Below are positions 7,790 through 34,577 of a DNA stretch of 39,784 bases, piece by piece. Under the pieces are notes generated by a model. That model was given only the letters and a program-made list of their open reading frames with translations, did no database searches and was not told the DNA's origin. A program made the translations under genes and the position numbers. The stretch's first letter is position 1, and each line of letters starts with the position of its first letter. The stretch is from sequence record SRR31156797_4029; one strand, written 5' to 3'.

Positions 7790-7797
7790 TGCTATCC

Positions 7798-8268
7798 TCA
7801 ATTTTCCCCATTTTTTTCATTTGTCCCTGCTCGTTGACAAGCTGCTTCAAGATAACGCAAGCGTTTTTTGACACCACGATTGAAAAAGAATTTGTAAAAC
7901 AGCGCCGCCAGCATAAAACTGTAGGTTGTTTTCTGCTGCTCAAAACGGCTTTGTTCCGAATACGTGACTTGCAGCTTCCCTTTTCGTCCTGGAGCAAAAC
8001 TGTACCGTTGATCGATCACTCCTTCTTCATGGGTCGTACGAAGCCACAGCTCATCCGCGGCAATTTTTTTGACCGTCATAACGGCAGGTACCAACCGCGG
8101 AGCGGTTTTGGTTTGAATCATCGTTTCAATACGGCAGCCTTTCCCGAACGGTTCTTGGGCTTGTTTGGCTAGAAAGAATTTCTCTTGTTCCGCCAATAAC
8201 ACACGGGAAAAGTCCGTAGGTGTGGTATTCATTTGATAACTGCAAGACAATGTATCGGTTCTCATCAC
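7798..8268 (-). CDS. DUF3284-like hypothetical protein
   Basis: About 155 aa with a C-terminal 'LFYKFFFNRGVKKRLRYLE' segment. Sits next to a cellobiose-type PTS IIC, as is typical of this family. Family call is from memory. Confidence 0.6.
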   Translation of the reverse strand: MMRTDTLSCSYQMNTTPTDFSRVLLAEQEKFFLAKQAQEPFGKGCRIETMIQTKTAPRLVPAVMTVKKIAADELWLRTTHEEGVIDQRYSFAPGRKGKLQVTYSEQSRFEQQKTTYSFMLAALFYKFFFNRGVKKRLRYLEAACQRAGTNEKNGEN

Positions 8269-8318
8269 AAATTCCTTTCTAAAGGATGCGCGTATTGCAT
8301 TCCTTTACGTTTCTGGGC

Positions 8319-9653
8319 TTATCTTTCTTCTACCCTTTGATTGATCGTCTCAGATGCCGCTTGTTCATTTAATGCCGCTTCCGCTTTTTCTTCTTTTAAG
8401 TACCCGCGATCCATTACGATCAAGAATGGCACCCAGATCAAGGTCATTACGGCAACCGTCACTAACTGTAAGATTGCGCCGGCAACAGAACCCGTGCCTA
8501 ACCAACCAGATAAGAAGACCGGGGTCGTCCAAACAACCGTTGCTCCGATTGGCCGCGGAACCAAACCTGCGGCAATCGCAAAGTAAGAGATCGTCGTACT
8601 GGCTAATGGCGCTAAGATCCATGGGACAAAAGCGATTGGGTTCAAGACGATCGGCAAACCAAAGGTCATCGGTTCAGATACGTTGAAAACAGATGGAGCG
8701 ATCACCGTCTTCATTAATTTTTTCATCCGAATCGAACGAGCGATAAAGAAGGCCATTGTAATCGAGATCCCCAACTGCATTCCTTGATTGACGAACACGC
8801 CCATAAAAGTAGTGTTAATGATATGGGGCAATTGCTCAGCTCCCGCTTTGTAGGCTTCATAGTTTTCGATCGCTAACGCATTCATGATTGGATCGATCAC
8901 CGCATTGACCACCAAGGTACCGTGAATCCCAAACCACCAGAAGAATTGGGTGAACAAGACGGCAATCAGTACTGCTGGCAACGTACCGCCCAAGCCCATT
9001 AATGGTTTTTGCAGAATCTCATAAACGAAATCAACGGCATTGCCCCATGAAGTAAAGGTGAACAAGTAGCGGATCAAATTGAAAAGGAACAACGGTGCCG
9101 CACCAGGAATGATGGCGACAAATGATTCTGCGATCATTGGCGGAACCGAATCTGGCATTTTGATCGTCAGCCCAGCCGCACTGATTTTGCAATAGATCTG
9201 CGTAGCGATAATGGCCGTGATGATTCCAACAAACATTCCCTCAGCCCCTAATTTCGACAAGGGGATCACTGTACCTAACTCTTCGGATGAGCCAAAAGGC
9301 AGCAGCATCAAAAACGAAGACAGTGAGATGGCACCCGCAAATAATTTGGCTTGTCCATACTTGCCAGCCAACTGATAGCCGATCCCAAAAACAACGAAAA
9401 TAGCGGTGATACTCATGGTTGCATTTCCGATAGGACCAAAAAAGTCGTTTAGAAACGTGATGAATCCCTCTGGAAGTTTTTCCGAGAGTCCGAAAGTAGC
9501 AGGCAGATTTTGAATAATAATCATAATTGACGCAAACATTGTTGCAGGAAAAGCGACCATAAACCCATCACGAAGACTTAACAAGTATTTGTTGTTGGCA
9601 ATGATCTGAGCAAAAGGCACCATCTTTTCGGCTAATTTATCAATAAACTTCAT
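8319..9653 (-). CDS. PTS lactose/cellobiose-family IIC component
   Basis: LRDGF, IKMPDSVPP, WWFGIHG, FNVSEPMTFGLPIVLNP motifs. About 10 TM segments. Confidence 0.92.
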   Translation of the reverse strand: MKFIDKLAEKMVPFAQIIANNKYLLSLRDGFMVAFPATMFASIMIIIQNLPATFGLSEKLPEGFITFLNDFFGPIGNATMSITAIFVVFGIGYQLAGKYGQAKLFAGAISLSSFLMLLPFGSSEELGTVIPLSKLGAEGMFVGIITAIIATQIYCKISAAGLTIKMPDSVPPMIAESFVAIIPGAAPLFLFNLIRYLFTFTSWGNAVDFVYEILQKPLMGLGGTLPAVLIAVLFTQFFWWFGIHGTLVVNAVIDPIMNALAIENYEAYKAGAEQLPHIINTTFMGVFVNQGMQLGISITMAFFIARSIRMKKLMKTVIAPSVFNVSEPMTFGLPIVLNPIAFVPWILAPLASTTISYFAIAAGLVPRPIGATVVWTTPVFLSGWLGTGSVAGAILQLVTVAVMTLIWVPFLIVMDRGYLKEEKAEAALNEQAASETINQRVEER

Positions 9654-9677
9654 TTCGTTTTCTCCTTTATTTTTAAC

Positions 9678-9691
9678 TGTAAACGTTTACT
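9678..9691. promoter_or_regulatory. cre (CcpA) or LacI-family operator TGTAAACGTTTACT
   Basis: Matches TGWAARCGYTWNCW and contains the perfect palindrome GTAAACGTTTAC, just upstream of the IIC RBS. Confidence 0.7.
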
Positions 9692-9737
9692 ACAATCAGT
9701 ATAGTTGTTTAGTTAATGTTTACACAACCCCTAAAAT

Positions 9738-9767
9738 AAAAAAAGATCAGACGTCACTGATCTTTTT
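9738..9767 (-). terminator. Terminator overlapping the lacI-family stop codon
   Basis: AAAAAGATCAG-ACGTCA-CTGATCTTTTT inverted repeat with a U tail on the minus strand. Confidence 0.7.
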
Positions 9768-10788
9768 CGGCAATCGATTCTCTAATGATCAATTCACTGC
9801 CACAAACGACGCGAACAGGCATCGTCCGCACCCCAAGGATTTTATTTTTCGCTAATTCGACACTCATCTGCCCCATCTCTTCAGCTTTCATCTTGACGGA
9901 AGACAGTGCGGGCGTCATAAATTGCGCCATTTCGATATCATCAAAACTAACGACTGACACATCTTTAGGAATCGATAGCCCCGCTTCAGCGAGTGCCTTG
10001 TAAACCCCGACAGCCATAGGATCGCTGGCAACGACGATCGCTGTGGGGCGAGGATTCATTTGCGCGATCTGCTGACCAAAATGCAAACCAGTCTCTGGTG
10101 ACCATTTCCCCTGCAGCACGGTTGTGAACTTTTCCAATTTATTGAGCAGCATCCATTGGCGATAATTTTCTGCTCGAATCTCTTGTTCATCGTAAACGAC
10201 TTCGCCAGAAATCGTCACTCGGCTGGCAACACCGCCCACAAAGGCAATATTCTCATGGCCCTTCTCTTTTAACAACGTGAGGATCTGGTGAGTCTTTTGG
10301 GCAAAATCGGTTTGGATGCAATCGTAGCTGGGTGCTTCACTATAATTATCCACCAGGATAATATTGGCATTTTGCTGACTGATCTCTGCCAAAGCATCGC
10401 TGGTCATCTCTCCAATAATAATGACTGCGCCATACTTCGCCAATTGTGCCAAATCTTTTTGAGGCTCCCGCATGGAAAAGGCCCGAATCGTTTTTAAGCG
10501 CCACTTCGCCGCTTCTTTTTCGATCCCATTGCGGATCATCATAAAATACGGATCGTTTCTTTCCGACTCTCGATCGTGGCGGGTAATGATGGCAATCGTG
10601 TTTTGGTCGCCGACTTCACGGGAATGGGGTTGATTTTTTTCTTTTGAATAATTCATTTGGTTGGCGATCTCAATGACTCGTTGACGCGTGTGTTCATTGA
10701 TACTGAAGGTTTCATCATTGTTAAGGATTCTAGAAACACTTGCTACCGACACCCCGGCTAATTTCGCGATATCTCTCATACTTGCCAT
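9754..10788 (-). CDS. LacI-family transcriptional repressor (LacR/GalR/EbgR-like)
   Basis: N-terminal HTH ASMRDIAKLAGVSVASVSRILN, DPYF motif, IPKDVSVVSFDD. Confidence 0.93.
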   Translation of the reverse strand: MASMRDIAKLAGVSVASVSRILNNDETFSINEHTRQRVIEIANQMNYSKEKNQPHSREVGDQNTIAIITRHDRESERNDPYFMMIRNGIEKEAAKWRLKTIRAFSMREPQKDLAQLAKYGAVIIIGEMTSDALAEISQQNANIILVDNYSEAPSYDCIQTDFAQKTHQILTLLKEKGHENIAFVGGVASRVTISGEVVYDEQEIRAENYRQWMLLNKLEKFTTVLQGKWSPETGLHFGQQIAQMNPRPTAIVVASDPMAVGVYKALAEAGLSIPKDVSVVSFDDIEMAQFMTPALSSVKMKAEEMGQMSVELAKNKILGVRTMPVRVVCGSELIIRESIAEKDQ

Positions 10789-10870
10789 AGCTGCACCTCA
10801 TCTGTTTACTGTTTACTAAATTTACATTCAGCATAGGCATAATTTTTGGCCCTGTCAACCTTCTTTTCAC

Positions 10871-10913
10871 AAAAAAACCGAAACTCCTTAGCTTTTCACT
10901 AAGGAAGTTTCGG
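10871..10913 (-). terminator. Terminator of the ABC operon
   Basis: CCGAAACTCCTTAG...CTAAGGAAGTTTCGG stem, followed by T7 on the minus strand. Confidence 0.8.
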
Positions 10914-10929
10914 GATACCCATTTGTTTT

Positions 10930-11532
10930 CTATTTGAGCGCTTGGTCACAAAGCACGACATTGACTAAATACAAGGTGCTGATTCCTAAGACCAATAAGT
11001 AGACTGGACCAAACAGCAAAAAGGTCAAGACAAGCGTCACTGTTGCTAAAAGATGCGCCAGTACTCGTTTGGGTGAACGAGCAAACTGATAAAAACTATA
11101 AAACAATGAGCTGGGCTGCTGCGGATAGGTGTGAAGCAGCCTCGTTTGATAAAGTAAGACCAAGCAAAACAAGCCAAAGGTGAACGCTAACGCGTAACTA
11201 GCGATCTGAAACAGCGGGTGCTGCAAACGGCTAAAGATAAAGCTGTCCGCCAAAAGCAGCAGGAAGAATAGACTGAGCAAACGGTCTTGCCCTTTTCTTG
11301 TTGTCCACTGTTGATGAAATGCCTGCTGAAAACGAGCTTTGCTGCTTGCCTCCAAGCCATCGTTCCGCAGTTCCGTCAACGTCTCGATCAATGCTCGACT
11401 AGCGGTGGTACTGGTGATCAAAGGCAAGGAATACAACAGCCACATGCCTTGTAAAACCAGTAAATGCGGAAGCCAGTTGATGCCAGTCAACAGCGCTTGG
11501 TTCAAGCATTGCGGGGTAACTTTTGTTCTCAT
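10930..11532 (-). CDS. YesL/DUF624-like membrane protein
   Basis: 200 aa, multiple TM helices, 'WLLYSLPLIT' segment, translationally coupled to a sugar ABC permease. Confidence 0.7.
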   Translation of the reverse strand: MRTKVTPQCLNQALLTGINWLPHLLVLQGMWLLYSLPLITSTTASRALIETLTELRNDGLEASSKARFQQAFHQQWTTRKGQDRLLSLFFLLLLADSFIFSRLQHPLFQIASYALAFTFGLFCLVLLYQTRLLHTYPQQPSSLFYSFYQFARSPKRVLAHLLATVTLVLTFLLFGPVYLLVLGISTLYLVNVVLCDQALK

Positions 11533-12389
11533 CCTTTGGAACCTCCCGTCAGATCCATTCCCTCAATAAAGTAGCGTTGTGCGAGGAAGAATAGCAAGAT
11601 CGTCGGCAATAGCACAAGCGTTGCTCCTGCCATCAAGTAGTTCCATTGGGTCGTTGATTGGTTTTGGAAGACTTGCAGGCCAATCTGCAGCGTGTACTTT
11701 TCTTGATTTTGAATATACAGTAATGGTCCTAAGAAATCATTCCACGCCCCATTGAAGGAGTTGATGGCAATCGTGATCAGCGCGGGTTTCGTCAATGGGA
11801 TCATTAGATGGCTCCAAATATAAAGATGATTGGCGCCATCGATCTTAGCGGCTTCGATCAATTCATTGTTGACGGACAAGTAAAACTGCCGCATCAAGAA
11901 AATGTTAAAGGCGTTGCCGAAAAACGCTGGAACGATCAGCGGCAGATAGGTGCCAACCCAGCCGATTTTGGAAAACAAGACATATTGCGGGATCATCGTC
12001 ACAAAGCCAGGAATCATCATCGTAGACAAGACGAGGGCAAAGATCAGATTTTTTCCTGGAAAGGCCAATTTTGCAAACCCATAAGCAATGAAGGAATTTG
12101 ATAAGACATTCCCGAAGACCACTAAGACGGTAATGAATAACGTATTTTTTGCATACTGCCAAAATGGAAAGGCGTTGATAGTCTCCAAATAATTGCCAAG
12201 ATTGATTTCTTCTGGGAAAAAGGTCGGCGGGTAGCGCACGATCTCCTCCATCGGTTTCAATGACGTAAAGACCATCCACAGCAACGGGATCAGCAGCACG
12301 ATCCCGATGATCGACATCACCACATAGCTGATGATTTTTTTGACTCGCTGTTGGCTTGATTTGCTTCGTGTTTTTGTCGTCATTTCCAT
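11529..12389 (-). CDS. Carbohydrate ABC transporter permease (MalG-like)
   Basis: EAA loop ELIEAAKIDGA, WNDFLGPL motif. Confidence 0.93.
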   Translation of the reverse strand: MEMTTKTRSKSSQQRVKKIISYVVMSIIGIVLLIPLLWMVFTSLKPMEEIVRYPPTFFPEEINLGNYLETINAFPFWQYAKNTLFITVLVVFGNVLSNSFIAYGFAKLAFPGKNLIFALVLSTMMIPGFVTMIPQYVLFSKIGWVGTYLPLIVPAFFGNAFNIFLMRQFYLSVNNELIEAAKIDGANHLYIWSHLMIPLTKPALITIAINSFNGAWNDFLGPLLYIQNQEKYTLQIGLQVFQNQSTTQWNYLMAGATLVLLPTILLFFLAQRYFIEGMDLTGGSKG

Positions 12390-13309
12390 TAGCTGCCACC
12401 TCCGGTATAGTGAACCCAGCGTGGTGCCAGCTTGAGATTGATAAAGGTCAAGACTAAGACGATCAAGAACAAGATCATCGACATGGCCATCGCATAGCCC
12501 ATATCAAAGGCGACGAAGGCTTTGTTCCACATATGCAAATTATAGAAGAGCAGCGAATTTGCAGGACCGCCGGTACCATTTTTGGTCATCACGTATGCTT
12601 CTTGGAAAATTTGAAAAGAACCGATCGTTGAAGTAATCACATCATAGAAGATGATTGGCGTGATCAAAGGGATCGTAATATTTTTGAATTTCGCCCAGAC
12701 TCCCGCCCCATCGATCTCAGCCGATTCATACAGCGTCGGTGAAATATTTTGCAAGGTAGCTAGATACAAGAGCATCGCGCCCCCCGAACTCCAAATCTTC
12801 ATCAAAATCAACGCTGGTTTCGTCCATTCGGGATCAAACAGCCACGCTGGACCTTTGATATTGAACCAGCTCAAGAAGGTATTGATCAATCCTGCGGAAG
12901 GAGATAATAATTGCATCCATAAGACGTAGACGGCAACCCCTGAAAGGATCGCTGGCAAGTAAAAGGTCGTTCGGAAAAAACTGATTCCGCGGATTTTTTG
13001 ATTCAATAACGTGGCTAGAAAGACACTGAACAACGTGGTTAAGGGAACATTGAAGAGTACAAAATACGCCGTGTTATAGAGAGATTTCCAAAACAGGGTA
13101 TCTTGCGTAAACATGCGGGTAAAGTTCTTAAAGCCGATAAAATTCATTTTCGAAGTCAGATTGTAATCGGTAAAGCTTCCTACGAAGGAAAACAGCATGG
13201 GCCCTAACATAAACACCACGAACCCAAGCAAAAATGGTGCTACGAAGAAGTAGCCCCAAAGAGCTTCTTGCCGTTTACTTTTTGAACGCTTCTTTGGCAT
13301 TCCTTCCAC
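12389..13309 (-). CDS. Carbohydrate ABC transporter permease (MalF-like)
   Basis: EAA loop LYESAEIDGA, FRTTFYLP, MGYAMA motifs. Confidence 0.93.
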   Translation of the reverse strand: MEGMPKKRSKSKRQEALWGYFFVAPFLLGFVVFMLGPMLFSFVGSFTDYNLTSKMNFIGFKNFTRMFTQDTLFWKSLYNTAYFVLFNVPLTTLFSVFLATLLNQKIRGISFFRTTFYLPAILSGVAVYVLWMQLLSPSAGLINTFLSWFNIKGPAWLFDPEWTKPALILMKIWSSGGAMLLYLATLQNISPTLYESAEIDGAGVWAKFKNITIPLITPIIFYDVITSTIGSFQIFQEAYVMTKNGTGGPANSLLFYNLHMWNKAFVAFDMGYAMAMSMILFLIVLVLTFINLKLAPRWVHYTGGGS

Positions 13310-13432
13310 TCCATTCTATTTTTACTCATTGTTTGTTCAAGAAAACATGTCCGCTTCGCAAAGCAGAAAGCAAAGCCCAGTCCGCTAACCGACTGGACTT
13401 TCCTTCTTTTTTAAAAACGCTCGTTTTGAAAT

Positions 13433-14749
13433 TTATTTGTTTTGCTCAACGAGATCTTCGACCGCTTTTTGCGCATCTGCCAACCCTTCAGCCGGTGTTT
13501 TGCTGCCCAGCATGATTTGGTCGATCTGTTCATTGACAAGACTGCTGAAATCAGGAGCTGTCAATGGTACAGGTGTGATCACCGTATTGGCAAAGTTTTC
13601 ATCTGCCATTTGGTAGATCATTTGGCCGTTTTCATCTAGATTGTCGTTGTTGACCAAGTTTTCGTTGGCTGTTCGATTCGCCATGATATCAAAGCTTTTC
13701 TCACCAAATTTCTCTTGAACTTCTGGTGTCGACAAGTATTTGATAAACTCATAGGACGCTTCAGGATCTTTGGCTCCGTATGGCACTTCTAAGACGAACC
13801 CGCCACCCCATGACCAGTGACCAGAACCACTTTCTTTTTCAGGAATTTGAATGACCCCAAATTCAAAGTCATCCGGTGCATTTTCCGCTAAACTTGAGTA
13901 GTAGTTGATGTTTTGCGCACGCATCGCCACTAATCCAGAAATGAATGGATCGGCAACACCTGAACCAAATTCAGCTTCTAACCGATTGATGGTATCTTGA
14001 CCATAATACTCTTGCCAGTCTAAGATCCATTCCAACGCTTCCACTTTGTTGTCTGTATCGATTTTGACGTTCTCATCCTTGTCAAACCAGCTGACGCCAT
14101 CGTCGGCATTCAAGGCCCACACATCGGCGCCTAAATTCCACAATGGGTAAAAACCGATCCGCTCAAAGTCATCACCGTTTTTGACATCTAATTTACGAGC
14201 AACTGTTTCTAACTCCTCCCACGTTTGGGGCAGTTGCTCTTCACTGATACCTGCCTCTTTAAAGAGTGTCTTGTTGTAGAAAATCACTTGCGTATCTGTA
14301 TTGAAAGGAACAGCATACGCATCCCCTTCATACTCCACCGTATCCCATAATTGCGGATAAAATTCATCAGAAAAGCCTTCTTCGATATACTCGCTTAAAT
14401 TTGTTGCTTGCTGCGCTTCTGCCCGCTGAGCAACAGAATTAATATCTTGTACAATAACATCAGGCGGATTACCAGCAGTGATCGACGACAGTGATTTTGT
14501 CCAAATATCGCCCCAAGGCTGGTAGCTGTATTTGACCTCGATTTTATCTTGTGACGCATTAAAATCATCAATAATTTCTTCAATTACTTCTTGTCTTGCA
14601 CCAGACCCCCAGAAGGACCAAAAATCCAACGTCGTTTTGCCATCTGCTGACTCATTCCCCGAGGAATCAGCGGTTTCGCTATTGCCACATCCTGCCGCCA
14701 GTACACCAACTGAAAAAAGCAAAGTCCCCATATAAAATAACTTTCTCAT
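13433..14749 (-). CDS. Carbohydrate ABC transporter substrate-binding lipoprotein
   Basis: Lipobox LAAGC, AGNPPDV and IFYNKTLF motifs of SBP family 1. Confidence 0.92.
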   Translation of the reverse strand: MRKLFYMGTLLFSVGVLAAGCGNSETADSSGNESADGKTTLDFWSFWGSGARQEVIEEIIDDFNASQDKIEVKYSYQPWGDIWTKSLSSITAGNPPDVIVQDINSVAQRAEAQQATNLSEYIEEGFSDEFYPQLWDTVEYEGDAYAVPFNTDTQVIFYNKTLFKEAGISEEQLPQTWEELETVARKLDVKNGDDFERIGFYPLWNLGADVWALNADDGVSWFDKDENVKIDTDNKVEALEWILDWQEYYGQDTINRLEAEFGSGVADPFISGLVAMRAQNINYYSSLAENAPDDFEFGVIQIPEKESGSGHWSWGGGFVLEVPYGAKDPEASYEFIKYLSTPEVQEKFGEKSFDIMANRTANENLVNNDNLDENGQMIYQMADENFANTVITPVPLTAPDFSSLVNEQIDQIMLGSKTPAEGLADAQKAVEDLVEQNK

Positions 14750-18061: not shown

Positions 18062-18904
18062 ATGACCCCACCTACTAGACCCTCGCTGATACGTCGGATA
18101 CTCGGTCGGATGCTTTTGCTATTGATTTTCTTATTTATTCTAGGTATTATTGGCGGAATTATTGTTTTAAATAACCTCACCATCGCGGAAAATTGGTTTG
18201 GTCTGAATGAATACCAAGTCGTTGAAACCAGGCATCAGATCATTCGTTTGTTCCCCTACTTTTGGGTAGCAGGGATCCTGCTGGTCTTTTTGATCGGTCT
18301 GATCATCGGCCTCAAAAAACACAAAAAGTCGCCATTTTACTGGTTATTCTCATTGCTCTTGCTGCCAGCGATTCTCTTTTGTATTGGCGTAGTTTCCACC
18401 TTTTTACCTGTAGACCGCCAACTCTTTCGAGAAGAAACCAGTGCCAAAGAAATTATGGCGGCGCTGCCAAATCAATCTTCATTCAAGGACAAAGAGCTGC
18501 AACTGGTCAGCTATAGTTTTCACATCCGCAATGTCCCGCTAAAAAGCGGCATTTATGCAGTTGCGCGAGTGATCAATCCAAACACAGGCCTACAAGACGA
18601 GTATTGGTATTACCCAGAAAATCTGTTGACCAAATGGAAAAAAGACGACGATACGATCGAGCTTTCGATGGAAGATACCATTGCCTTTGATGCCATCGAC
18701 TGGGGCGTCATTCCCAAGATCATCAAGGATTCTGAGGCGCGAGCAGCTCAGCTAGATCACTATGTTCCTGGCGTCAGCATCGTCATTTTAAACGGCTTCC
18801 AAGGTGAATGGACTTGGACCGTTGGTTTAAATGGGATTCGTAATCGAACCGAGATCAATTATGTCTATGATCTCAAAGGAAATTATCAATCCGAATGGCA
18901 ATAA
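18062..18904 (+). CDS. Hypothetical membrane protein (3 N-terminal TMs + soluble domain)
   Basis: 280-aa ORF, RBS AAAGGA, own terminator. No recognisable motif. Confidence 0.75.
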   Translation: MTPPTRPSLIRRILGRMLLLLIFLFILGIIGGIIVLNNLTIAENWFGLNEYQVVETRHQIIRLFPYFWVAGILLVFLIGLIIGLKKHKKSPFYWLFSLLLLPAILFCIGVVSTFLPVDRQLFREETSAKEIMAALPNQSSFKDKELQLVSYSFHIRNVPLKSGIYAVARVINPNTGLQDEYWYYPENLLTKWKKDDDTIELSMEDTIAFDAIDWGVIPKIIKDSEARAAQLDHYVPGVSIVILNGFQGEWTWTVGLNGIRNRTEINYVYDLKGNYQSEWQ

Positions 18905-18907
18905 AAC

Positions 18908-18943
18908 AAGCGGCACCTATCCCCGTGAATAGGTGCCGCTTTT
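18908..18943. terminator. Terminator between convergent genes
   Basis: AAGCGGCACCTAT...ATAGGTGCCGCTTTT perfect stem. It closes the sulfatase operon from the other direction. Confidence 0.88.
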
Positions 18944-18955
18944 GCTTTTATCAGT

Positions 18956-19819
18956 TTACTGATCCAAGTCTTTGACACACCGAAACCCTAAATTATTGGC
19001 TGCCGACATCCCAGAATTACCATTTCTAGCGGCAATTCGGTATCGTTTGCAATAGGATTCATGGCACAAAAATGAACCGCCGCGAGTCGCATACAGTTGA
19101 TCATCTTGTGTTTGATTCCTTATCCAAAAGGTTTGTCCCGTCTGTTGTTGAAACTGCGTCAACGGGATGCGGGCAGGATTGACGCACCATTCCCAGACGT
19201 TGCCGATCACTTGATAGAGACCAAAGCCATTGGGCTCATACCATTTCGCAGGCGCTGTATTGGCGAAGCCGTCTGCTCGCGTGTTGCTTTTTGGAAACTC
19301 GCCTTGCCAAATATTGCAATGATAGGTATTTTCTGCCAAAAATTCCCTTCCCCAAGGATATTTTTCAAAAGTTGTCCCGCCTTTTGCAGCGATCTCCCAC
19401 TCTGCTTCTGTCGGGAGGCGTTTTTTTGCCCATTGGCAATAGGCGATCGCATCGTTGCGAGACACCTGAACCACTGGGTGATCCATCCGCTGGGCAATCG
19501 TTGAATCAGGTCCTTCAGGATGACGCCAATCTGCGCCACTAACTGTGTACCACCAAGCCATATTCGGTATCTTTTGACTGCGGTGTTTCGTTTGCTCACT
19601 TAAAAAATAGTGAAAAACGAACGACCAGCCAAAGCGCTCGGCTTCTGTGACATATCCTGTTGCTTCCACAAAAACTTGGAAAGCTTGGTTCGTCACCGTC
19701 GTGGCATCAATGGCAAATGCTGGGCTGTCGAGGCTGATTTGCGGTCCCTCAAGATCCTCGGCAAAGCCGTCCATCGTATTCGTGCCGATTCGATAAGTTC
19801 CTGCTGGAATCGTGGGCAT
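18956..19819 (-). CDS. Formylglycine-generating enzyme (FGE/SUMF1, aerobic sulfatase maturase)
   Basis: HPVVQVS, RLPTEAEWE, GNVWEW, catalytic RGGSFLCHESYCKRYR with both Cys, NLGFRC. Confidence 0.92.
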   Translation of the reverse strand: MPTIPAGTYRIGTNTMDGFAEDLEGPQISLDSPAFAIDATTVTNQAFQVFVEATGYVTEAERFGWSFVFHYFLSEQTKHRSQKIPNMAWWYTVSGADWRHPEGPDSTIAQRMDHPVVQVSRNDAIAYCQWAKKRLPTEAEWEIAAKGGTTFEKYPWGREFLAENTYHCNIWQGEFPKSNTRADGFANTAPAKWYEPNGFGLYQVIGNVWEWCVNPARIPLTQFQQQTGQTFWIRNQTQDDQLYATRGGSFLCHESYCKRYRIAARNGNSGMSAANNLGFRCVKDLDQ

Positions 19820-19834
19820 CTGTTTGCCTCCTTT

Positions 19835-20611
19835 TTACAATAATTGATAGCCATTGTACAGATTGATCAGTAACACCAGCACGATCACGGTTTGGAATAC
19901 CAGTGTCACTCGCTGCGGTGACAGGACGTTGCTGGCCTTGGCGCCTAATAGTCCTCCCACGATCGCGGCTGGAATAACAAACCACAAAATTTGCAGATCA
20001 TACGCACCAAAACCTGTCGAAAAAGCGATCGTCAAAATTTTTGCCAGCTGCGAGAAAAAAATCGTACAAATTGAATAAATCGTCGCCTCTTTGATCGGCA
20101 TGGCAAACAGCAACATCAATAAAGAAACATTGATGGGTCCGCCGCCGATCCCCAGCAAACTGGCTAGAAAACCGAGAATCAAACCACAAGCTGCATACCA
20201 GCCGACTTTTTCCAACGCAAACCCGCGCCAGTTATATTTTGTATACAAAAAAGCAAACAATAGTGACAGCACGGTCACAAGGATTTGGATCAGCTGAACC
20301 ATCTTGTCGTCTCGAAAAACCAGCAATAGCTGTTCAAAGGCAACATTGCCTAAAACACCGCCTAACACAGCACCACCAGAAACCCACAAGGCAATCGACC
20401 AATTGATTTTCCGTCCACTGGCTAATTGTCTAGCTGTCGAAACGATAGACATCGTGAAGACAGCTGTCGCCGAGTAAAAAGAGATCGCAGCAACAGAATG
20501 GGCGCCGATAAAATCGAAAATCGGTTTGATCAATACACCACCACCCATGCCGGAAACTGCACCTACGGCATTTGCTAAGACGATCACGAGAAAATAAATC
20601 AATCCGATCAT
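19835..20611 (-). CDS. TauE/SafE-family sulfur-compound (sulfite) exporter
   Basis: Duplicated G(M/I)GGG motifs (SGMGGG, LGIGGG), about 8 TMs, 258 aa. Overlaps the upstream stop (ATGA). Confidence 0.85.
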   Translation of the reverse strand: MIGLIYFLVIVLANAVGAVSGMGGGVLIKPIFDFIGAHSVAAISFYSATAVFTMSIVSTARQLASGRKINWSIALWVSGGAVLGGVLGNVAFEQLLLVFRDDKMVQLIQILVTVLSLLFAFLYTKYNWRGFALEKVGWYAACGLILGFLASLLGIGGGPINVSLLMLLFAMPIKEATIYSICTIFFSQLAKILTIAFSTGFGAYDLQILWFVIPAAIVGGLLGAKASNVLSPQRVTLVFQTVIVLVLLINLYNGYQLL

Positions 20612-21720
20612 TGTCTCACCCCTTGCAACAGCCCCAATATCTCATTGATTCTGGGTGTGAAGTCTTTTAACAGCTCCTGATAGCCGCAAAACCCCTCACT
20701 ATCCACGTACATTGCATCTTTCATTCGTTTACAGCCTCCTCGGCACATTTTTTGGAAAGGACATTGCGTACACTTCGAAGGCATGTCTTTTTTCTGGCAC
20801 AAAAACTGCTGCGAACAGTCTTGAGAAAACAATTCCCGCAACGTTTGCTCTTGGATATAGCCCATGCGAAACTCATCTAATACATAGAAGTCACAAGGAT
20901 AGACACTGCCGTCGGCTTCGATCACATACTGCACTTGGCAGTTGCCTAGAATCCCACAGGCAGTTACTTGCTGCCGCACCAATAGATTTAGTAAATCATC
21001 GAACAGCTTAATACTTAGGTAGCGCCCTTGTGTCAATTCCTGCAGCCAAAACGCCAACAGCTGCTGATAAAAGTGCGCAAAGCTTCTTGGTGTCAAGGCA
21101 TAGTCGTTCGTTGACGTGGCATCCAAATCAGCCAAACAAGGAATGAACTGCGCAAAGGCAATCTGCTCTTCCTTGAGAAAATCAAACACACGCTGGGCTT
21201 CCTTTGCTAATGGATTTGTCAACACGCACAAGACATTGTACTCGATCTGATAGGCGTCCAATAATCGCTTGGTCTGCAAAACCCGCGCAAAGGTCCCCCG
21301 CCCTTTGGCGTCTAATCGATGCCGATCGTGCGCAAGCGGATGCCCATCGATCGACAGCCCGACTAAAAAGCGATACTCTTTCAAAAAACGACACCATTTA
21401 TCATTGATCACCATGCCGTTGGTCTGGATCGCATAGTGTACTGTCACTCGCTTTTTTTGCGCCGCAACATAAGCCGTTAGTTTTCTAAAATAACTCAGCC
21501 CTGCCATCGTCGGCTCTCCGCCTTGAAATGCCAACGTCAAATGATCGCCAGCTTCTAAGTCTGCATAGATGTTTGCAATCATCTTTTCCATTACACCCTC
21601 TTTCATTTTGCCAAAGGAACGCACTTCGCGCAAGGAACTGACGTTGGCATAAAAGCAATAGGTGCAGCGCAGATTGCAAAGATAGGATGCTGGCTTGATC
21701 AATACGGAGATATGTTTCAT
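20608..21720 (-). CDS. Anaerobic sulfatase-maturating enzyme (radical SAM/SPASM, anSME)
   Basis: IKPAS..CNLRCTYC, FQGGEP, QTNG, SIDG, EADGSVYPCDF and SPASM CTQC...CRGGC motifs. Confidence 0.93.
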   Translation of the reverse strand: MKHISVLIKPASYLCNLRCTYCFYANVSSLREVRSFGKMKEGVMEKMIANIYADLEAGDHLTLAFQGGEPTMAGLSYFRKLTAYVAAQKKRVTVHYAIQTNGMVINDKWCRFLKEYRFLVGLSIDGHPLAHDRHRLDAKGRGTFARVLQTKRLLDAYQIEYNVLCVLTNPLAKEAQRVFDFLKEEQIAFAQFIPCLADLDATSTNDYALTPRSFAHFYQQLLAFWLQELTQGRYLSIKLFDDLLNLLVRQQVTACGILGNCQVQYVIEADGSVYPCDFYVLDEFRMGYIQEQTLRELFSQDCSQQFLCQKKDMPSKCTQCPFQKMCRGGCKRMKDAMYVDSEGFCGYQELLKDFTPRINEILGLLQGVRQ

Positions 21721-21749
21721 GTGGAGGCCTCGATTCTTTTTTTACTTTT

Positions 21750-23250: not shown

Positions 23251-25296
<2,046 letters not shown>

Positions 25297-26118
25297 TTAT
25301 TGATCGATCAATTTTTGTACATGAAGCGTTAAATACAATTGTTCATCGTCATATAATGTTTTATTTAAATATTCGCCAATCAAACGGGTGGTTTCATAGG
25401 CTTTAGGATATTTATCAATCACGTGGACTAACAGAGGATTCCCGACGCCTTCAACGATTTCCTTGTTTTCAATCCGTTTAAAAAAGAATCTCAAATGGGT
25501 GACGAAGCGATCGAAAGCTAAACTATTCTCATCAATGTGCACACGATTGTGAATACGAATAAGTGAAATAATGTCTTTGATTTTTTGTGTCAGCAATTCG
25601 ATATCTTCCATCTTCTCTGAATCGTCATTGATTTGCGCATTAATAAAATGCATGGCGATATTACTGATCTCTGCCTCATTTAGGGAGAATTGCGTTTTGC
25701 TTTCAATCAATCGAACCGCATGCTCTCCTACTGCATACTCGTTGGGATAGAAACGCTTGATTTCCCAAGTCAAGCGATTGTTGATGCTGATCCCTTCTTC
25801 TTTCAAGCGAATCAAATTATAGATGTGATCCGTCAAAGAGATGTAAATGGAATCACTTAATTGGTAGGAAATGACTTGCTTTCCATAACGGATAATATCA
25901 TCCGCAAGAGACGCATATTGGATTGGAATGTTCTCTAGCAATTCCATCAAACGATCAGAGGATTTCTTATGAAGCACAAACACTTTTTCAATTTTTGATT
26001 CATCGGCGGTTTGTCCTGGTTTCATTTTGAAGCCAAGGCCGGTACCGATCCAGATAAAATCTTTGCCATCTTGTCCGACCAAAACTGCATTGTTGTTTAA
26101 GATTTTTTTGATCTTCAA
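25297..26118 (-). CDS. BglG/LicT-family transcriptional antiterminator
   Basis: CAT domain KIKKILNNNAV...GTGLGF, four PRD histidines (LTDHI, IAMHF, FVTHL, LTLHV). TTG 26118 follows AAGGAGGTGA. Confidence 0.93.
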   Translation of the reverse strand: MKIKKILNNNAVLVGQDGKDFIWIGTGLGFKMKPGQTADESKIEKVFVLHKKSSDRLMELLENIPIQYASLADDIIRYGKQVISYQLSDSIYISLTDHIYNLIRLKEEGISINNRLTWEIKRFYPNEYAVGEHAVRLIESKTQFSLNEAEISNIAMHFINAQINDDSEKMEDIELLTQKIKDIISLIRIHNRVHIDENSLAFDRFVTHLRFFFKRIENKEIVEGVGNPLLVHVIDKYPKAYETTRLIGEYLNKTLYDDEQLYLTLHVQKLIDQ

Positions 26119-26142
26119 GACGCTTCTCACCTCCTTAAAATG

Positions 26143-26202
26143 AAAAAAGGCGATACCTTAATACATGTGTAGGATCCATACACACGTAAAAAGGTATAGC
26201 CT
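26143..26202 (-). terminator. Leader attenuator terminator overlapping RAT 1
   Basis: Minus strand AGGCTATACCTT...AAGGTATCGCCTTTTTT with an inner TGTGTA/TACACA stem. Confidence 0.85.
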
Positions 26203-26221
26203 GCATTATCAGTAACTACCC
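26193..26221 (-). promoter_or_regulatory. RAT upstream of the antiterminator gene
   Basis: Minus strand GGGTAGTTACTGATAATGCAGGCTATACC. Confidence 0.88.
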
Positions 26222-26235
26222 ATTTGATTGCCTTT

Positions 26236-26273
26236 ACTATACTATTTTTCTAGAAACGTTGCAAGCGTTTTAT
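26236..26273 (-). promoter_or_regulatory. SigA promoter of the sulfatase operon with a cre-like site over the -35
   Basis: Minus strand TTGCAA-17 nt-TATAGT (26264..26236). Plus strand TGCAAGCGTTTTAT (26260..26273) is a 2-mismatch cre. Confidence 0.7.
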
Positions 26274-26333: not shown

Positions 26334-27647
26334 TCACTGATCCAGCAAACGGCTTTGCCCTTCGATTTTTTGGATCTCCGTAATGTCTTGCGTGACTTCT
26401 AGACAACCTAAATAGATGCCTGCTTCGTTTTTTAATGCAAAATAGCGAATATAGATTTTACGGCCCCGCATATCGATCCAAAATTCAGCAGTCTCCCGTG
26501 TGCCCGCTCGAAAATCATCCAAAATCTGCTGCACGAGATGCATGCTTTTCGGTGGATGGCAGTTGACGACTTCACGGCCTAAAACCGAATTCGTTCGTGG
26601 AAAGACGCGACTCTTGCCTTCTGAATAAAAGCGCACCCGCTCTTCACTATCTACAAAGGTCAAGTCCACTGGCAACGTTTGAAAAATCGCCACCAATTGT
26701 TCAAATTGCAAATTACCAGTAGGCAATGAGAGGGTCGGCTGTTCAGCAATTTGCGGCGAATTTTCCGTTTCTATGACTTGAAATTCATCGAATCCTAAAC
26801 CGGCTGCGATGCCGGCGGTTGTTTCTTGGGCTTGTTTGATCGCCGCTTGCCTTGCGGGTTCTGCCGCCTGTTCCTTTTCAAGAGCTTCTTGGCTCGGTTT
26901 CCAAGGAAGCGGTTCTGGAATAAAGGCAAAGCCGATGTCTAAACTGTCAGCCGCAATTTGTTCCCAATCTTTAAGACTGAAGACATCCAGCGTCATTGGC
27001 ACCATGATTTCTTCTTCTTTGAAAATCATCTCTTCGATTTCGTTTTTGACCGCTTCCCATTGGACAGCAATCGGATTATAGGCAGTTTTTTCGGAAGCCA
27101 AAAGCTCATTGAGCGCTTTGATCATGACCCGAATATTATCATCGACACCCCACATCACTTTTGGCGGTGCAGTGATGCCGTACTTCTCCATGTAAGAAAA
27201 AATCAACGTTTCTTTTCGCGCATAATGTTTGTCGATCTGCATTAAATCATTGCAGGCAGCTTTTAGACGCTTTTTAGGCGTCCAATCACCGGTTTTTATT
27301 TTAGCTAAGAGGCTATCGATCTCATCGGTCAACAAGGATTGCAGGACTTGGTTCTCCAATTTCAGAGTATGCACAGGATGGCCTGGTTGCCCATATTCTT
27401 CATTGGAGTGATGGATCTCATTGATCGATCCTTTAAAAACAGCAGCATGAATATTGCACAAACGCTGAATCTCAGAAGGGTCCAACCCCGTTTGGATCAA
27501 AGCTTTTTCAGCAGCAGTGATCTCCGTCACATCCACACCATCAAATTCTTCGTTAAACAAGCGTTTAGCTTCTTCAAAGGAACCGCCTTGGTGAAGCAAA
27601 CTCAGTATTTCGACGATCCGTTCTTGTCTTTGACTGTTAGTTTTCAT
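26334..27647 (-). CDS. DUF438 / hemerythrin-like / PAS domain protein
   Basis: EIQRLCNIHA, GHPVHT, HYARKE, PPKVMWGVDD, MIFKEE and C-terminal PAS (DLTFVD, VVNCHPPKS, LEVTQDIT). Start MKTNSQ coupled to the DUF1858 stop. Confidence 0.85.
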   Translation of the reverse strand: MKTNSQRQERIVEILSLLHQGGSFEEAKRLFNEEFDGVDVTEITAAEKALIQTGLDPSEIQRLCNIHAAVFKGSINEIHHSNEEYGQPGHPVHTLKLENQVLQSLLTDEIDSLLAKIKTGDWTPKKRLKAACNDLMQIDKHYARKETLIFSYMEKYGITAPPKVMWGVDDNIRVMIKALNELLASEKTAYNPIAVQWEAVKNEIEEMIFKEEEIMVPMTLDVFSLKDWEQIAADSLDIGFAFIPEPLPWKPSQEALEKEQAAEPARQAAIKQAQETTAGIAAGLGFDEFQVIETENSPQIAEQPTLSLPTGNLQFEQLVAIFQTLPVDLTFVDSEERVRFYSEGKSRVFPRTNSVLGREVVNCHPPKSMHLVQQILDDFRAGTRETAEFWIDMRGRKIYIRYFALKNEAGIYLGCLEVTQDITEIQKIEGQSRLLDQ

Positions 27648-27877
27648 TTCGTCGCTCCTTTCACAAGAAACCCTTGTTTTTCGAAAGCGAGACAAACCCT
27701 TTCCAAGGGGATCTTCTTCATCTGAGCCCCTTTGGGAATCGTCATGTAACGTCCAGCAGTTTGTAGCATCCCTGGTTGATTGATCGCCGTAAACCCTATT
27801 TTACTCATGATTTCTTGTATTTCAGGGTATTGTGCCACAAGTTCATAGAGCGTTTTTGACAGATCGATTTCTTTCAT
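27644..27877 (-). CDS. DUF1858 domain protein
   Basis: IDLSKTLYELV.QYPE...GF...MTIPKGA...GF pattern, 77 aa, typical partner of DUF438. Confidence 0.8.
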   Translation of the reverse strand: MKEIDLSKTLYELVAQYPEIQEIMSKIGFTAINQPGMLQTAGRYMTIPKGAQMKKIPLERVCLAFEKQGFLVKGATK

Positions 27878-31775: not shown

Positions 31776-33038
31776 TTAGTTCTCCCCCTTCGCGGCAACT
31801 GCGTCGGTAACGCCTTTTTCTTCTTCCGTTAAACTTCGTTCGCTGATTTTAAAGAATGGATAGTAGATCGCCACACTAATCAGTAAGGAAGCGATACTCC
31901 AAAGAACAGCAGGGATATTGCCGCCGGTTGCAAGGTAAGTATTGATAAAGGGCGGTGTGGTCCACGGTGGATTGAACATGATTCGCCCAATGACATTGGT
32001 GACCGACAAGAAATACGTTCCGACACATAATACAAGGGGTGTCAGGATGAAAGGAATCATCATAATAGGGTTCATCACGATCGGAAACCCAAAAATGATT
32101 GGCTCATTGATACAAAAAATAGCAGAGGGCAAAGCCATCTTCCCTAGGGAACGATAGGCTTTTTTCTTTGAAACTAACATGTTGATGATCAGCCCCAGTG
32201 TTGAACCAGTGCCTCCATAGCACAAAAACATGATATAAAACCCGCCTGCAAAAATGTTCGGTAACGGTTCGCCTGCAGTGTAGGCTTCGGTATTGGCTGC
32301 TAATAAAGCTAGAAAAATCGGATCGCCGATACTCCCCATCACATTGCTGCCATGAATCCCTAAACACCAAAGCAACAAAATCAAAAAGGTATACAACAGC
32401 ATCCCAGACAATGTGTTTAGACCAACTGCCAGCGGTGAAAAGATGGCTTGCACGAATTGATTGACATTAAATTCCAACAAGACCCGAATCACCCAGGCAC
32501 CAGTGATGATGGCAGCTCCGGGAAGCAAGACCGAAAAACTCTTGGCAACTGCGGGCGGCACTTCTGCTGGCATCCGAATCACTAAGCGGTGCTTGAGAAA
32601 AAAGCGATGGATCACTACTGTCGCAATCGCTGTGACGATTCCTGTAAACAGACCAGACGCCCCCAAAGAAGCTGGATCGATCGTCCATTCTTCCCCCGCC
32701 TGCAGCAGCAAAAACGCGCAGACTGCCAACACGACAGAACCGATCCGATCGATCTCATACGAAGCCGCCAAATAGTAGGCGATCCCGATACAAGCGGCCA
32801 GTCCCAAAATCCCAAATGTAAAATTGCTGGCGGCGCCTAGTTTGATGCCAAACTCCCCGACAAACTCGGTCCAGCCGGGAAAAGGCAGATTGGCTAAAAT
32901 CAAAAAGAGACTGCCGATAATCGTCAGCGGCATCGTAACGGCGACTCCGTTACGTACGGCAACTAAAAATCGATTTTCACTGATCCTAACCAATCTTGGT
33001 GCAAAATTTTCCTGAAACCCTTCAATCAACCGATTCAT
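31776..33038 (-). CDS. PTS lactose/cellobiose-family IIC component (stand-alone)
   Basis: AVRNG, IRMPAEVPP, LWCLGIHG, GGTGST, INEPIIFGFPIVMNP, PWTTP. Start MNRL after AGGAGG. Confidence 0.92.
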   Translation of the reverse strand: MNRLIEGFQENFAPRLVRISENRFLVAVRNGVAVTMPLTIIGSLFLILANLPFPGWTEFVGEFGIKLGAASNFTFGILGLAACIGIAYYLAASYEIDRIGSVVLAVCAFLLLQAGEEWTIDPASLGASGLFTGIVTAIATVVIHRFFLKHRLVIRMPAEVPPAVAKSFSVLLPGAAIITGAWVIRVLLEFNVNQFVQAIFSPLAVGLNTLSGMLLYTFLILLLWCLGIHGSNVMGSIGDPIFLALLAANTEAYTAGEPLPNIFAGGFYIMFLCYGGTGSTLGLIINMLVSKKKAYRSLGKMALPSAIFCINEPIIFGFPIVMNPIMMIPFILTPLVLCVGTYFLSVTNVIGRIMFNPPWTTPPFINTYLATGGNIPAVLWSIASLLISVAIYYPFFKISERSLTEEEKGVTDAVAAKGEN

Positions 33039-33147
33039 CCTGTCTCCTCCTACTAAATATCTCGCTTTTTTAATAAGAGTAGCATAAAAAACGCTTTCTG
33101 CATTTTTAGAACACTCGACGCCTTCCCGATTCCAAGAATACTGCTGG

Positions 33148-33804
33148 CTAGCTGTTTCTTTGCCAAATGGGTAAAGCCCCTGCCAAATCACGTTCCTTCG
33201 ACCAAGCGATGGCACCTGACAGCAAAAAGAAACTAATGACCGTCCCTTCCCTCACCGCTAGCGGTAAGCCCAAACTGATCGCTAGCAAGAGTGCCCCCGA
33301 AATACAGACTGCATCAACGCCATAACGGTACTGCTTAAATGTCCAACGACTGCGTTGCGCCAGCAAATGACACCAGTGCTCGATTGGAAATTTCAAGACC
33401 TGCAACCGTAGGACTTGTCCCGTCGCCGTTCCAGAAATCAAGATCCCACCGATCAAAGCAGCTAGTTGGCTCCAATAATTCGTCAAGTGCAGCGATGCCA
33501 AGAAGTAGTAAACAAAGCCATTGATCAAATAGCCGAAAGCCAGCAAAGCGAAAAACATAATCAAGTACTCACTGCCTTTTTGTTTGAGGGACGTCTGCCG
33601 CCGATCCAATAGCCAACAGGCAGCTAAAAAGCCCAAGTTGATGGCTGTTGTGATGGTGCCGACTTTGATTCCTGACATCGTTGCCAGCGTAACATTCAAG
33701 GCATTAAAACTACTGACCCCAACGCTTGCTTTAATGGTCAAGCTGATCCCGAATGCACTCAGCCCATAAAAAATCCCTGATCCTATCCATTGCTTTTTAT
33801 TCAT
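33148..33804 (-). CDS. YczE/YyaS/YitT-like membrane protein
   Basis: ASVGVSS..AL, IKVGT, VREGT motifs, about 6 TMs. Confidence 0.75.
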   Translation of the reverse strand: MNKKQWIGSGIFYGLSAFGISLTIKASVGVSSFNALNVTLATMSGIKVGTITTAINLGFLAACWLLDRRQTSLKQKGSEYLIMFFALLAFGYLINGFVYYFLASLHLTNYWSQLAALIGGILISGTATGQVLRLQVLKFPIEHWCHLLAQRSRWTFKQYRYGVDAVCISGALLLAISLGLPLAVREGTVISFFLLSGAIAWSKERDLAGALPIWQRNS

Positions 33805-33865
33805 TTTTTCTCCCACACTTTCGTTTTTGCTTTTCTAAGTATGTGCTATACTGACTAAAAACAAA

Positions 33866-33881
33866 TAGGAGATTTCTCCTA
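33866..33881. promoter_or_regulatory. Palindromic operator between divergent genes
   Basis: TAGGAGA-TT-TCTCCTA, downstream of TGcTATACT (33844..33852) and just upstream of the regulator RBS. Confidence 0.6.
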
Positions 33882-33896
33882 GTTTGGAGGAAAAAA

Positions 33897-34568: not shown

Positions 34569-34577
34569 CAAGCAAAT

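Follow-up and report, generated by a model that had tools for sequence, protein, structure and literature searches.

Why should an operon that encodes a single sulfatase also encode two unrelated enzymes for making formylglycine (FGly)? The question is raised by a stretch of 39,784 nucleotides from sequence record SRR31156797_4029 (the window), in which genes for an anaerobic sulfatase-maturating enzyme (anSME), which is a radical S-adenosylmethionine (SAM) protein, and for a formylglycine-generating enzyme (FGE) lie on either side of a gene for a TauE/SafE-family permease (TauE). In the available portions of the papers concerned, FGE is described as O2-dependent and acting on Cys, and anSME as O2-sensitive and acting on Cys or Ser (PMC7771511, PMC3920027); textbooks and reviews, the latter in the portions available, present the two as alternatives used 'depending on the organism' (PMC6189696, PMC7771511). 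The locus is predicted to be one terminator-bounded, six-gene operon on the minus strand (licT, the gene for a phosphotransferase system (PTS) permease EIIBCA, and those for the sulfatase, anSME, TauE and FGE), and is assigned, by its sequence, to an Enterococcus and to the uptake and desulfation of a sugar-like compound. We consider it reasonably probable that the operon specifies a substrate-induced pathway of uptake and cytoplasmic desulfation, equipped with a portable activation module that would work with or without O2 and would export the sulfate.

A preliminary description of this DNA gave the positions of the FGE, TauE and anSME reading frames exactly as found here, and held both maturases to be intact and the anSME to carry a CxxxCxxC motif together with SPASM cysteines. 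All of this was borne out, since every catalytic cysteine is present and both proteins closely match solved, characterised enzymes. The anSME scores 313.5 bits (E 2e-92) against Clostridium perfringens anSME (4K37), with which both its radical-SAM CX3CX2C motif (CNLRCTYC, residues 15-22) and eight SPASM cysteines (Cys 255, 261, 276, 317, 320, 326, 330 and 345) align. We take the latter to be the ligands of two auxiliary [4Fe-4S] clusters. Pfam returns a Radical_SAM match and SPASM PF13186 (41.8 bits), and the two top NCBIfam matches are the anSME models TIGR03942 and NF010321, peptide maturases scoring at most 189 bits. The FGE matches PF03781 with 227.6 bits (residues 3-283 against profile positions 7-255 of 255) and the solved FGEs with 262-301 bits (E 1e-88 to 1e-77), including 300.7 bits (E 1e-88) against the Thermomonospora curvata enzyme 5nxl and about 284 bits (E about 1e-83) against human FGE. 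Its C-x4-C motif CHESYC (Cys252 and Cys257 in GGSFLCHESYCKRYR) aligns to that of the T. curvata and human enzymes, and these two cysteines are presumably the copper ligands. In NCBIfam no FGE-specific model was matched, only distant FGE-fold families below their cut-offs, and the identity of the FGE is therefore drawn from the Pfam and PDB matches.

The sulfatase matches PF00884 with 138.9 bits over residues 3-359. Because the domain begins at residue 3 there is no room for a signal peptide, and the enzyme is predicted to be cytoplasmic; FGE and anSME likewise lack signal peptides, which would place all three proteins in the same compartment. The VCVPSR motif reported earlier was found, with CVPSR at residues 51-55 and the longer signature CVPSRNSFLTG in the window translation; CVPSR lies at residue 51 in the nearest genome (G001) also, and the signature starts at residue 53 in the orthologues of loci L102 and L103. 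The closest named relative of the source is Enterococcus gallinarum, with a sulfatase 87% identical. The sulfatase falls under every NCBIfam equivalog cut-off (arylsulfatase 187.9 against 481, choline-sulfatase 160.8 against 433, Mn-arylsulfatase 117.8 against 850), and its best solved relative is an exo-2S-iota-carrageenan sulfatase (112 bits), followed by sulfatases of the arylsulfatase/phosphonate-monoester-hydrolase type. By these scores it is placed outside any characterised subfamily with known substrate.

Whether this sulfatase is the only client was checked in G001, which shares 84% of sampled words with the window and carries the operon in stretches 99.6-99.9% identical to it. Four proteins of G001 match PF00884, and only the operon protein has the C/S-x-P/A-x-R motif. 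The other three, of 606-707 amino acids (aa), have hydrophobic N-termini and no motif, as expected of LtaS-like proteins. The genome has a single FGE, a single anSME and a further, weak radical-SAM match, so that the statement 'two maturases, one sulfatase' stands for the nearest genome: the sole FGly-type sulfatase there is encoded in the operon, beside both maturases, as had been claimed. Could one of the maturases nevertheless serve another CxPxR protein or a peptide, or catalyse a reaction that does not yield FGly, like EgtB, OvoA, SenA, PvdO or GldK-like proteins? PF03781 describes a broad fold, and the best NCBIfam matches of the FGE are to just those other families, far below their cut-offs; SPASM radical-SAM enzymes are often peptide modifiers, and many such families are listed at lower scores for the anSME. 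Nevertheless, by score the FGE stands with true FGEs (300 bits), well apart from the FGE-fold enzymes CalU17, OvsA, PorK and EgtB (at most 78 bits), and retains the two-Cys site, G001 has no second motif-bearing sulfatase, and in loci with FGE only (L014, L104, L105 and most of L137-L162) the gene lies directly 3' of that for a Cys-type sulfatase. The anSME gene here begins 29 nt 3' of the CVPSR sulfatase gene, and no short precursor-peptide gene is evident in the gaps of 13-29 nt between the operon genes. We regard a different client or chemistry as very improbable.

The preliminary description held that a locus usually has just one of the two maturases, and proposed that co-occurrence be counted in homologous loci. 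For this count, the surroundings (+/-10 kb) of related sulfatase genes were searched by tblastn with the six operon proteins at a coverage of at least 50%, taking one genome per species, which gave 79 distinct loci. Here and in the surveys below genes within +/-7 to 10 kb were counted as linked, some loci are cut short by the end of a contig, and with coverage thresholds of 40-50% fragments can be missed. An anSME-like match was present in 41 of the 79 loci (one of them just 21% identical) and an FGE in four (L008, L009, L014 and L085; three Enterococcus and one Bacillus). Both maturases were found in only two: L008, from E. gallinarum, with the same gene order as the window, and L009, from Candidatus Enterococcus huntleyi, where the FGE gene lies directly upstream of licT. 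Among loci titled Clostridium, Lachnospiraceae, Erysipelotrichaceae or Coriobacteriaceae none of the 79 had an FGE, and anSME or no maturase was found there. The nine closest, PTS-linked loci (L008-L016) comprise these two, four with anSME and TauE only (L011, L013, L015 and L016, from Enterococcus sp. UD-01, two Pseudolactococcus and Listeria costaricensis), one with FGE only (L014, E. rivorum) and two with neither maturase within 10 kb. That loci orthologous to the window's, here called type A, may have both maturases, anSME and TauE only, or FGE only suggests that the maturases are interchangeable.

Within the family Enterococcaceae the count comes out differently. Among 134 genomes, 25 have FGE and 44 have anSME; all 25 with FGE also have anSME, so that 19 have anSME only and none FGE only. 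The two genes lie within 5 kb of each other in 19 of the 25 FGE-bearing genomes (20 of 27 FGE places), and on different contigs in the other six. The claim that one maturase per locus is usual therefore holds in general, with both in 2 of 79 sulfatase loci, but not in this family; the arrangement is a conserved, family-wide module and no one-off. Being common among Enterococcaceae, it is a less singular case than was first thought, and it is better supported as an arrangement that is selected and functional.

Twenty of the Enterococcaceae FGE places were annotated in detail. Pairs at the same locus mostly show the order anSME-TauE-FGE. The full architecture LicT-PTS-sulfatase-anSME-TauE-FGE occurs with the window's type of sulfatase in two genomes (type A; G036 and G075), and with a dissimilar sulfatase (CMPARR, 22-23% identical) in seven (type B; G060, G064, G097, G119, G016, G020 and G096). 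Other orders are PTS EIIBC-sulfatase-FGE-anSME(-TauE) (G101, G108 and G113) and sulfatase-anSME-FGE (G117), while FGE alone is found in G083, in G085, at a second locus of G075 and in E. rivorum. The clients of the anSME-TauE-FGE unit also include a 456-aa CSPSR sulfatase. In G061, judged from matching coordinates and identities to be apparently the same genome as that of L008, there is a second copy of the unit (L090, G061:C30:18000-32500), 92-95% identical to the first, with no LicT or PTS gene in front and lying about 7 kb from a divergent EfAS-type Mn-dependent arylsulfatase (998 bits to NF052527). All 19 sulfatase reading frames in the annotated loci are of the Cys type, the sole type usable by FGE. 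The unit sits behind at least four dissimilar types of Cys-type sulfatase. TauE is kept between anSME and FGE in related loci and was found intact by tblastn in six of them.

Beyond the family, FGE was found in 60 of 401 genomes sampled from the order, and an anSME-like match lay within 7 kb in 8 (L107-L112, L117 and L134) of the 54 FGE loci outside Enterococcaceae (L107-L160); those without a nearby anSME are mostly sulfatase-FGE(-TauE). Among the latter, many small Lactobacillales genomes (1.7-2.2 Mb; order-level family f4, L137-L154) share a regular unit sulfatase-FGE-TauE. Its sulfatase is Mn-arylsulfatase-like, 67-75% identical to the L090 enzyme, and anSME is absent within 7 kb. The corresponding sample of 401 genomes from the class gave FGE in 36, and a radical-SAM gene within 7 kb in 5 of 37 FGE loci outside G001 (L164, L165, L168, L173 and L175); the three of these radical-SAM genes that were tested all exceed the TIGR03942 cut-off, with 387-389 bits. 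In these five loci, from Bacilli outside Lactobacillales with genomes of 5-7 Mb (family f24), FGE, bona fide anSME and sulfatase genes are clustered, and the f24 loci are independent instances of such FGE-anSME clusters. In a tree of 80 FGE rows the label 'dual' needs seven changes, at least three of them forced by well-supported branches, and a single clade of 27 rows holds most of the dual loci. The comparisons indicate that linkage of FGE and anSME is a minority pattern in Bacilli, of multiple origin, and that one large clade of enterococci shows it as a rule.

If one maturase were a dispensable passenger, either FGE as a recent addition to a sulfatase-anSME-TauE cassette or anSME as a relic, relaxed constraint might be expected in it. 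Pairwise dN/dS, the ratio of nonsynonymous to synonymous substitution rates, was estimated by the method of Nei and Gojobori (NG86) for pairs with usable dS, and was 0.067-0.169 for anSME (11 pairs), 0.028-0.172 for TauE (15 pairs) and 0.055-0.201 for FGE (16 pairs with dS below 0.8); for FGE pairs at about 52% identity, whose dS is near saturation, the values are 0.28-0.38. With dN/dS of about 0.03-0.2, all three genes are under purifying selection. The two-Cys motif is kept in all of 24 FGE sequences, one of which, from an FGE-only locus, has Tyr for His after the first Cys, and the cluster cysteines are all kept in 22 of 22 anSME sequences. The low dN/dS values and the conserved catalytic cysteines argue against either maturase being a relic. 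Across 25 dual loci the pairwise identities of FGE and anSME are correlated (r 0.90; none of 2000 permutations as high), which is expected under joint inheritance, but also for any two vertically inherited genes.

The passenger explanation draws on the FGE-less cassettes of Listeria costaricensis, Pseudolactococcus and Enterococcus sp. mentioned above (L011, L013, L015 and L016), on a Streptococcus pneumoniae locus that, in the available part of its description, combines PTS, sulfatase, modifying enzyme and TauE genes (PMC3302838), on the position of FGE as the 3'-terminal gene of the operon, and on two relatives in which anSME is damaged and the neighbouring FGE intact. It is countered by dN/dS of 0.05-0.2 for both maturase genes in many pairs, by the invariant catalytic cysteines, and by a linkage that persists between FGEs diverged to about 50% identity and that has at least three origins on the FGE tree. 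In one of the two relatives, moreover, decay strikes the whole operon and not one maturase: at the type-B locus of G062 (L088, G062:C10:182000-197000) licT is truncated, the sulfatase and anSME genes are each split in two and TauE is frameshifted, with FGE intact at 98% identity and the upstream hemerythrin gene described below absent. A second decaying type-B locus (L095, G034:C7) has licT, the PTS gene and the sulfatase gene split. We consider it unlikely that either maturase is a passenger.

That the back of the operon behaves as a unit is seen when the window is aligned, in 200-nt windows of identity, to the same locus of a same-genus relative with a type-B sulfatase (L087, G060:C3). The upstream genes, the leader and the beginning of licT are 94-99% identical. 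Identity falls to 32-70% from about 25,950 to about 21,745 (the body of licT, the PTS gene and the sulfatase gene), and is again 94-99% from the spacer 5' of anSME onwards, across anSME, TauE, FGE and beyond. One breakpoint lies inside the 5' part of licT and the other in the 29-nt spacer between sulfatase and anSME. The G+C content at third codon positions (GC3) is 0.38-0.42 in the swapped front genes, 0.48-0.54 in the module, and 0.50 +/- 0.04 in 19 other reading frames of the window. From the confinement of the drop in identity to the front half, together with its low GC3, we conclude that licT, the PTS gene and the sulfatase gene were exchanged by recombination, and that the back end was resident. 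Recent import of FGE from elsewhere, considered on account of its high GC (0.49), was rejected; its GC3 of 0.476 is within the window's range. A contig from a metatranscriptome (RNA) library, X1, tracks the window over 18900-21742 (FGE-TauE-anSME) and then diverges. These comparisons point to anSME-TauE-FGE as a portable module for sulfatase activation and sulfate disposal in Enterococcaceae and neighbouring Lactobacillales, one that is, as far as alignments can tell, generic for Cys-type sulfatases.

The features of the operon are listed in Table 1. All six genes lie on one strand with intergenic gaps of roughly 13-100 nt plus one 4-nt overlap, the gaps from the PTS gene through FGE being 13, 29, -4 (the overlap) and 15 nt. 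Given this tight one-strand spacing, the leaders and the terminal terminator, a single substrate-induced transcript is the natural reading. The terminator is common to the operon and to the convergent open reading frame (ORF) 18062-18904.

Table 1. Features of the predicted operon and its boundaries, in order of transcription (window coordinates)
Feature	Position	Strand	Basis or remark
Sigma-70-like promoter, TTGCAA-17-TATAGT, upstream of the operon leader	26236..26264	-	Consensus match only; such sites are no more numerous in the region than in shuffles
Leader 1, upstream of licT: ribonucleic antiterminator (RAT)-like sequence overlapping the 5' arm of a terminator hairpin, then U-run	26131..26225	-	
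LicT/BglG-type antiterminator, with CAT RNA-binding domain and two PTS regulation domains (PRD)	25297..26118	-	Pfam
Leader 2, licT/PTS spacer: another RAT-like sequence, overlapped by a strong terminator hairpin with a U-run	25200..25296	-	
Beta-glucoside-family PTS permease EIIBCA, 647 aa	23251..25194	-	TIGR01995 and Pfam EIIB, EIIC, EIIA
Cys-type (CVPSR) type I sulfatase, predicted cytoplasmic, 495 aa	21750..23237	-	PF00884
anSME (radical SAM/SPASM), 370 aa	20608..21720	-	Pfam, NCBIfam, 4K37; stop overlaps TauE start by 4 nt
TauE/SafE-family anion permease, 258 aa	19835..20611	-	PF01925
FGE (Cu/O2-dependent type by sequence), 287 aa, no signal peptide	18956..19819	-	PF03781, PDB matches
Bidirectional intrinsic terminator, 15-bp stem with 8 G-C pairs	18908..18941	both	Operon end, 15 nt past the FGE stop

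The product of licT has Pfam matches to CAT_RBD (72.9 bits) and PRD (121.7 bits in two stretches), and scores 273.3 bits against the NCBIfam LicT model, below its cut-off of 300. The permease is a clear member of the Bgl subfamily of PTS proteins, with 729.3 bits to TIGR01995 (cut-off 614.7) in an alignment that begins at ORF residue 38. Two starts are revised on reading of the leaders: the ORF lister began licT at 26130, while the TTG at 26118 fits the family alignment, and began the PTS gene at a GTG (25290) that falls within leader 2, while ATG 25194 is taken as its start. Leader 1 folds with -29.6 kcal/mol (z -4.2) and leader 2 with -39.3 kcal/mol (z -7.0), none of 200 shuffles being equally stable in either case. 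The RAT-like sequences of the two leaders resemble each other, each overlaps the 5' arm of its hairpin, and both are like what we take to be the RAT consensus. E. coli bglGFB and Bacillus subtilis licT/bglPH have an antiterminator with a CAT and two PRD domains, RAT/terminator leaders before both the regulator and the PTS gene, and a Bgl-family EIIBCA. The window resembles these beta-glucoside operons in its antiterminator, its RAT-like/terminator leaders and its EIIBCA, but differs from them in its cargo, a sulfatase with a maturation and export module, and in having no phospho-beta-glucosidase. TauE matches PF01925 with 110 bits over residues 6-247, a domain that extends across the whole protein, and is probably an exporter of sulfate released in the cytoplasm.

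Taken together, these assignments suggest the following pathway. LicT antitermination would induce the operon when substrate is present; the beta-glucoside-family PTS would import, and presumably phosphorylate, a sulfated glycoside-like compound; the Cys-type sulfatase would remove the sulfate in the cytoplasm, and TauE would export it. Cys51 of the sulfatase would be converted to FGly by either co-transcribed maturase: by anSME, dependent on three Fe-S clusters, without O2, and by FGE, with O2 and Cu, when O2 is present or Fe-S clusters are compromised. We infer that both maturases act on this sulfatase, and that O2 or Fe-S damage may be the reason for keeping both. Oxygen hedging fits the taxonomic pattern described above, in which enterococci have both maturases and the named strictly anaerobic groups no FGE, without being proved by it. 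A division of labour between oxic and anoxic conditions may exist, and so may its link to plant and gut habitats, as the preliminary description proposed.

Both maturases might instead be kept as a hedge against cofactor limitation or stress (iron supply, oxidative damage to Fe-S clusters, or copper scarcity) and not against the oxygen of the habitat. An anSME costs 12 Fe as well as SAM and a reductant, and catalase-poor lactic acid bacteria themselves produce H2O2 and superoxide, to which it is vulnerable, whereas FGE needs only Cu and O2. The comparative data fit here too, in showing that both genes are maintained, though not why, and dual loci are concentrated in Lactobacillales families. 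On the other side, the sequence offers nothing to separate such a hedge from the oxygen reading, with which it overlaps, Fe-S damage being itself caused by O2. No site for an iron or copper regulator was noticed in the leaders, though no search aimed at such sites was made. We regard a hedge of this kind as unlikely.

Several points weigh against the pathway of uptake and desulfation with dual, oxygen-indifferent activation that we favour. The anSME scores slightly below the curated thresholds (342.7 against 349.45 for TIGR03942, and 377.1 against 441 for NF010321). Neither the operon nor the window contains a phospho-beta-glucosidase of family GH1 or GH4, which leaves catabolism after desulfation unexplained. 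Contigs X12 and X13 of the RNA libraries span all six genes, at a low depth and with DNA carry-over possible, and were not taken as evidence of transcription. Certain anSME/AtsB enzymes are reported to act on their sulfatases in cells grown with air, where anSME on its own might therefore be enough. The pair is not obligatory, since anSME is broken in G062 and N-terminally truncated in G115, each time beside an intact FGE; 19 of the 44 anSME-bearing Enterococcaceae genomes lack any FGE, as do four close type-A loci. The related genomes are, besides, non-independent samples.

What the substrate might be can be addressed only speculatively. A bolder proposal, which we hold to be doubtful, is that anSME-TauE-FGE is horizontally exchangeable and plugged behind unrelated sulfatases, and here serves a pathway for sulfated beta-glucosides of plants, glucosinolates being the boldest candidate. 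For these, the PTS would deliver a hypothesised 6-phospho-glucosinolate, from which the cytoplasmic sulfatase would make the desulfo form, reported to be converted into nitriles by enterococci. According to the accessible part of a review, both glucosinolates and their desulfo forms are metabolised by E. casseliflavus CP1, 6-phospho-glucosinolate is the suspected intermediate, and the participating sulfatases 'require identification' (PMC6767122).

How does the operon compare with known systems? One of the closest is S. pneumoniae SPH1922-SPH1929, which, in the available part of an annotation-based account, has like the window a PTS, a sulfatase, a linked maturase and TauE in a member of Lactobacillales, but differs in its lactose-type PTS with separate EIIA, EIIB and EIIC, in a MarR/ROK regulator in place of LicT, and in having only one reported modifying enzyme and no FGE (PMC3302838). 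The Kiritimatiellales strains F1 and F21 share with the window the presence of FGE-family genes and anSME in one organism, which their authors called paradoxical; as far as the accessible text goes, these are strict anaerobes with hundreds of sulfatases, 11-20 FGE-domain genes and one anSME, many of the PF03781 genes may be no true FGEs, and operon linkage is not reported (PMC6388578). The window, unlike these strains, has one sulfatase, one FGE and one anSME in a single predicted transcription unit.

C. perfringens anSMEcpe (PDB 4K36-4K39) and Klebsiella AtsA/AtsB resemble the window in having a radical-SAM/SPASM maturase with three [4Fe-4S] clusters whose gene lies beside that of the sulfatase; the window differs from them in the FGE encoded in the same operon and in the TauE gene between the maturases, those loci having, to our knowledge, one maturase only. 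The FGE shares its fold and two-Cys motif with the copper-dependent enzymes of T. curvata (5nxl/6s07), Streptomyces coelicolor (2q17/6muj) and human (SUMF1, 1y1e), but differs from them in coming from a low-GC aerotolerant fermenter and in being paired in an operon with an O2-independent system.

All six proteins are assigned to known families, and it is the combination of both maturases in one operon that appears to be new. In the openly accessible literature no operon with both FGE and anSME, no anSME-TauE-FGE module and nothing on this enterococcal locus was found, subscription journals being outside the scope of the search; a paper on an E. faecium arylsulfatase (PMC12421950) makes no mention of FGE, anSME, PTS or operon. 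In contrast to the alternatives of the reviews, the locus offers a conserved unit with both maturases and a probable sulfate exporter, selected in many aerotolerant lactic acid bacteria. A genetically tractable system of one sulfatase and two maturases could test why organisms keep both FGly pathways, and could show whether O2, Fe-S damage or metal supply picks the maturase in vivo. The locus also flags a family of PTS-linked, predicted cytoplasmic sulfatases in gut- and plant-associated enterococci, and, whatever the aeration, the compact module might help to produce recombinant sulfatases in active form or proteins with an aldehyde tag.

Immediately upstream, on the operon's strand, lies a gene (26334-27695) for a 453-aa protein with DUF438, hemerythrin HHE and PAS_10 domains, which by appearance may be a sensor of O2, iron or NO. 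It was considered as the operon's O2 sensor and rejected. In a tblastn search over all loci it was found only in L087 (G060), L089 (G064) and L008 (apparently matched by G061:C8), three same-genus relatives, and it is therefore probably a neighbour of the operon and nothing more. The convergent ORF 18062-18904, on the plus strand, encodes 280 aa with a hydrophobic N-terminal third, and is 58-98% identical in same-genus relatives; it has no convincing family in Pfam, where a Sugar_tr match is sub-threshold, or in NCBIfam, where there were no matches. Further out, the operon lies in a neighbourhood of sugar utilisation (3501-14749 and 31776-38712) with a GH42 beta-galactosidase, a GH36 alpha-galactosidase, a PTS EIIC, a LacI regulator and an ABC sugar-binding protein, and with a sucrose-type unit of PTS EIIBC, GH32 hydrolase and LacI regulator.

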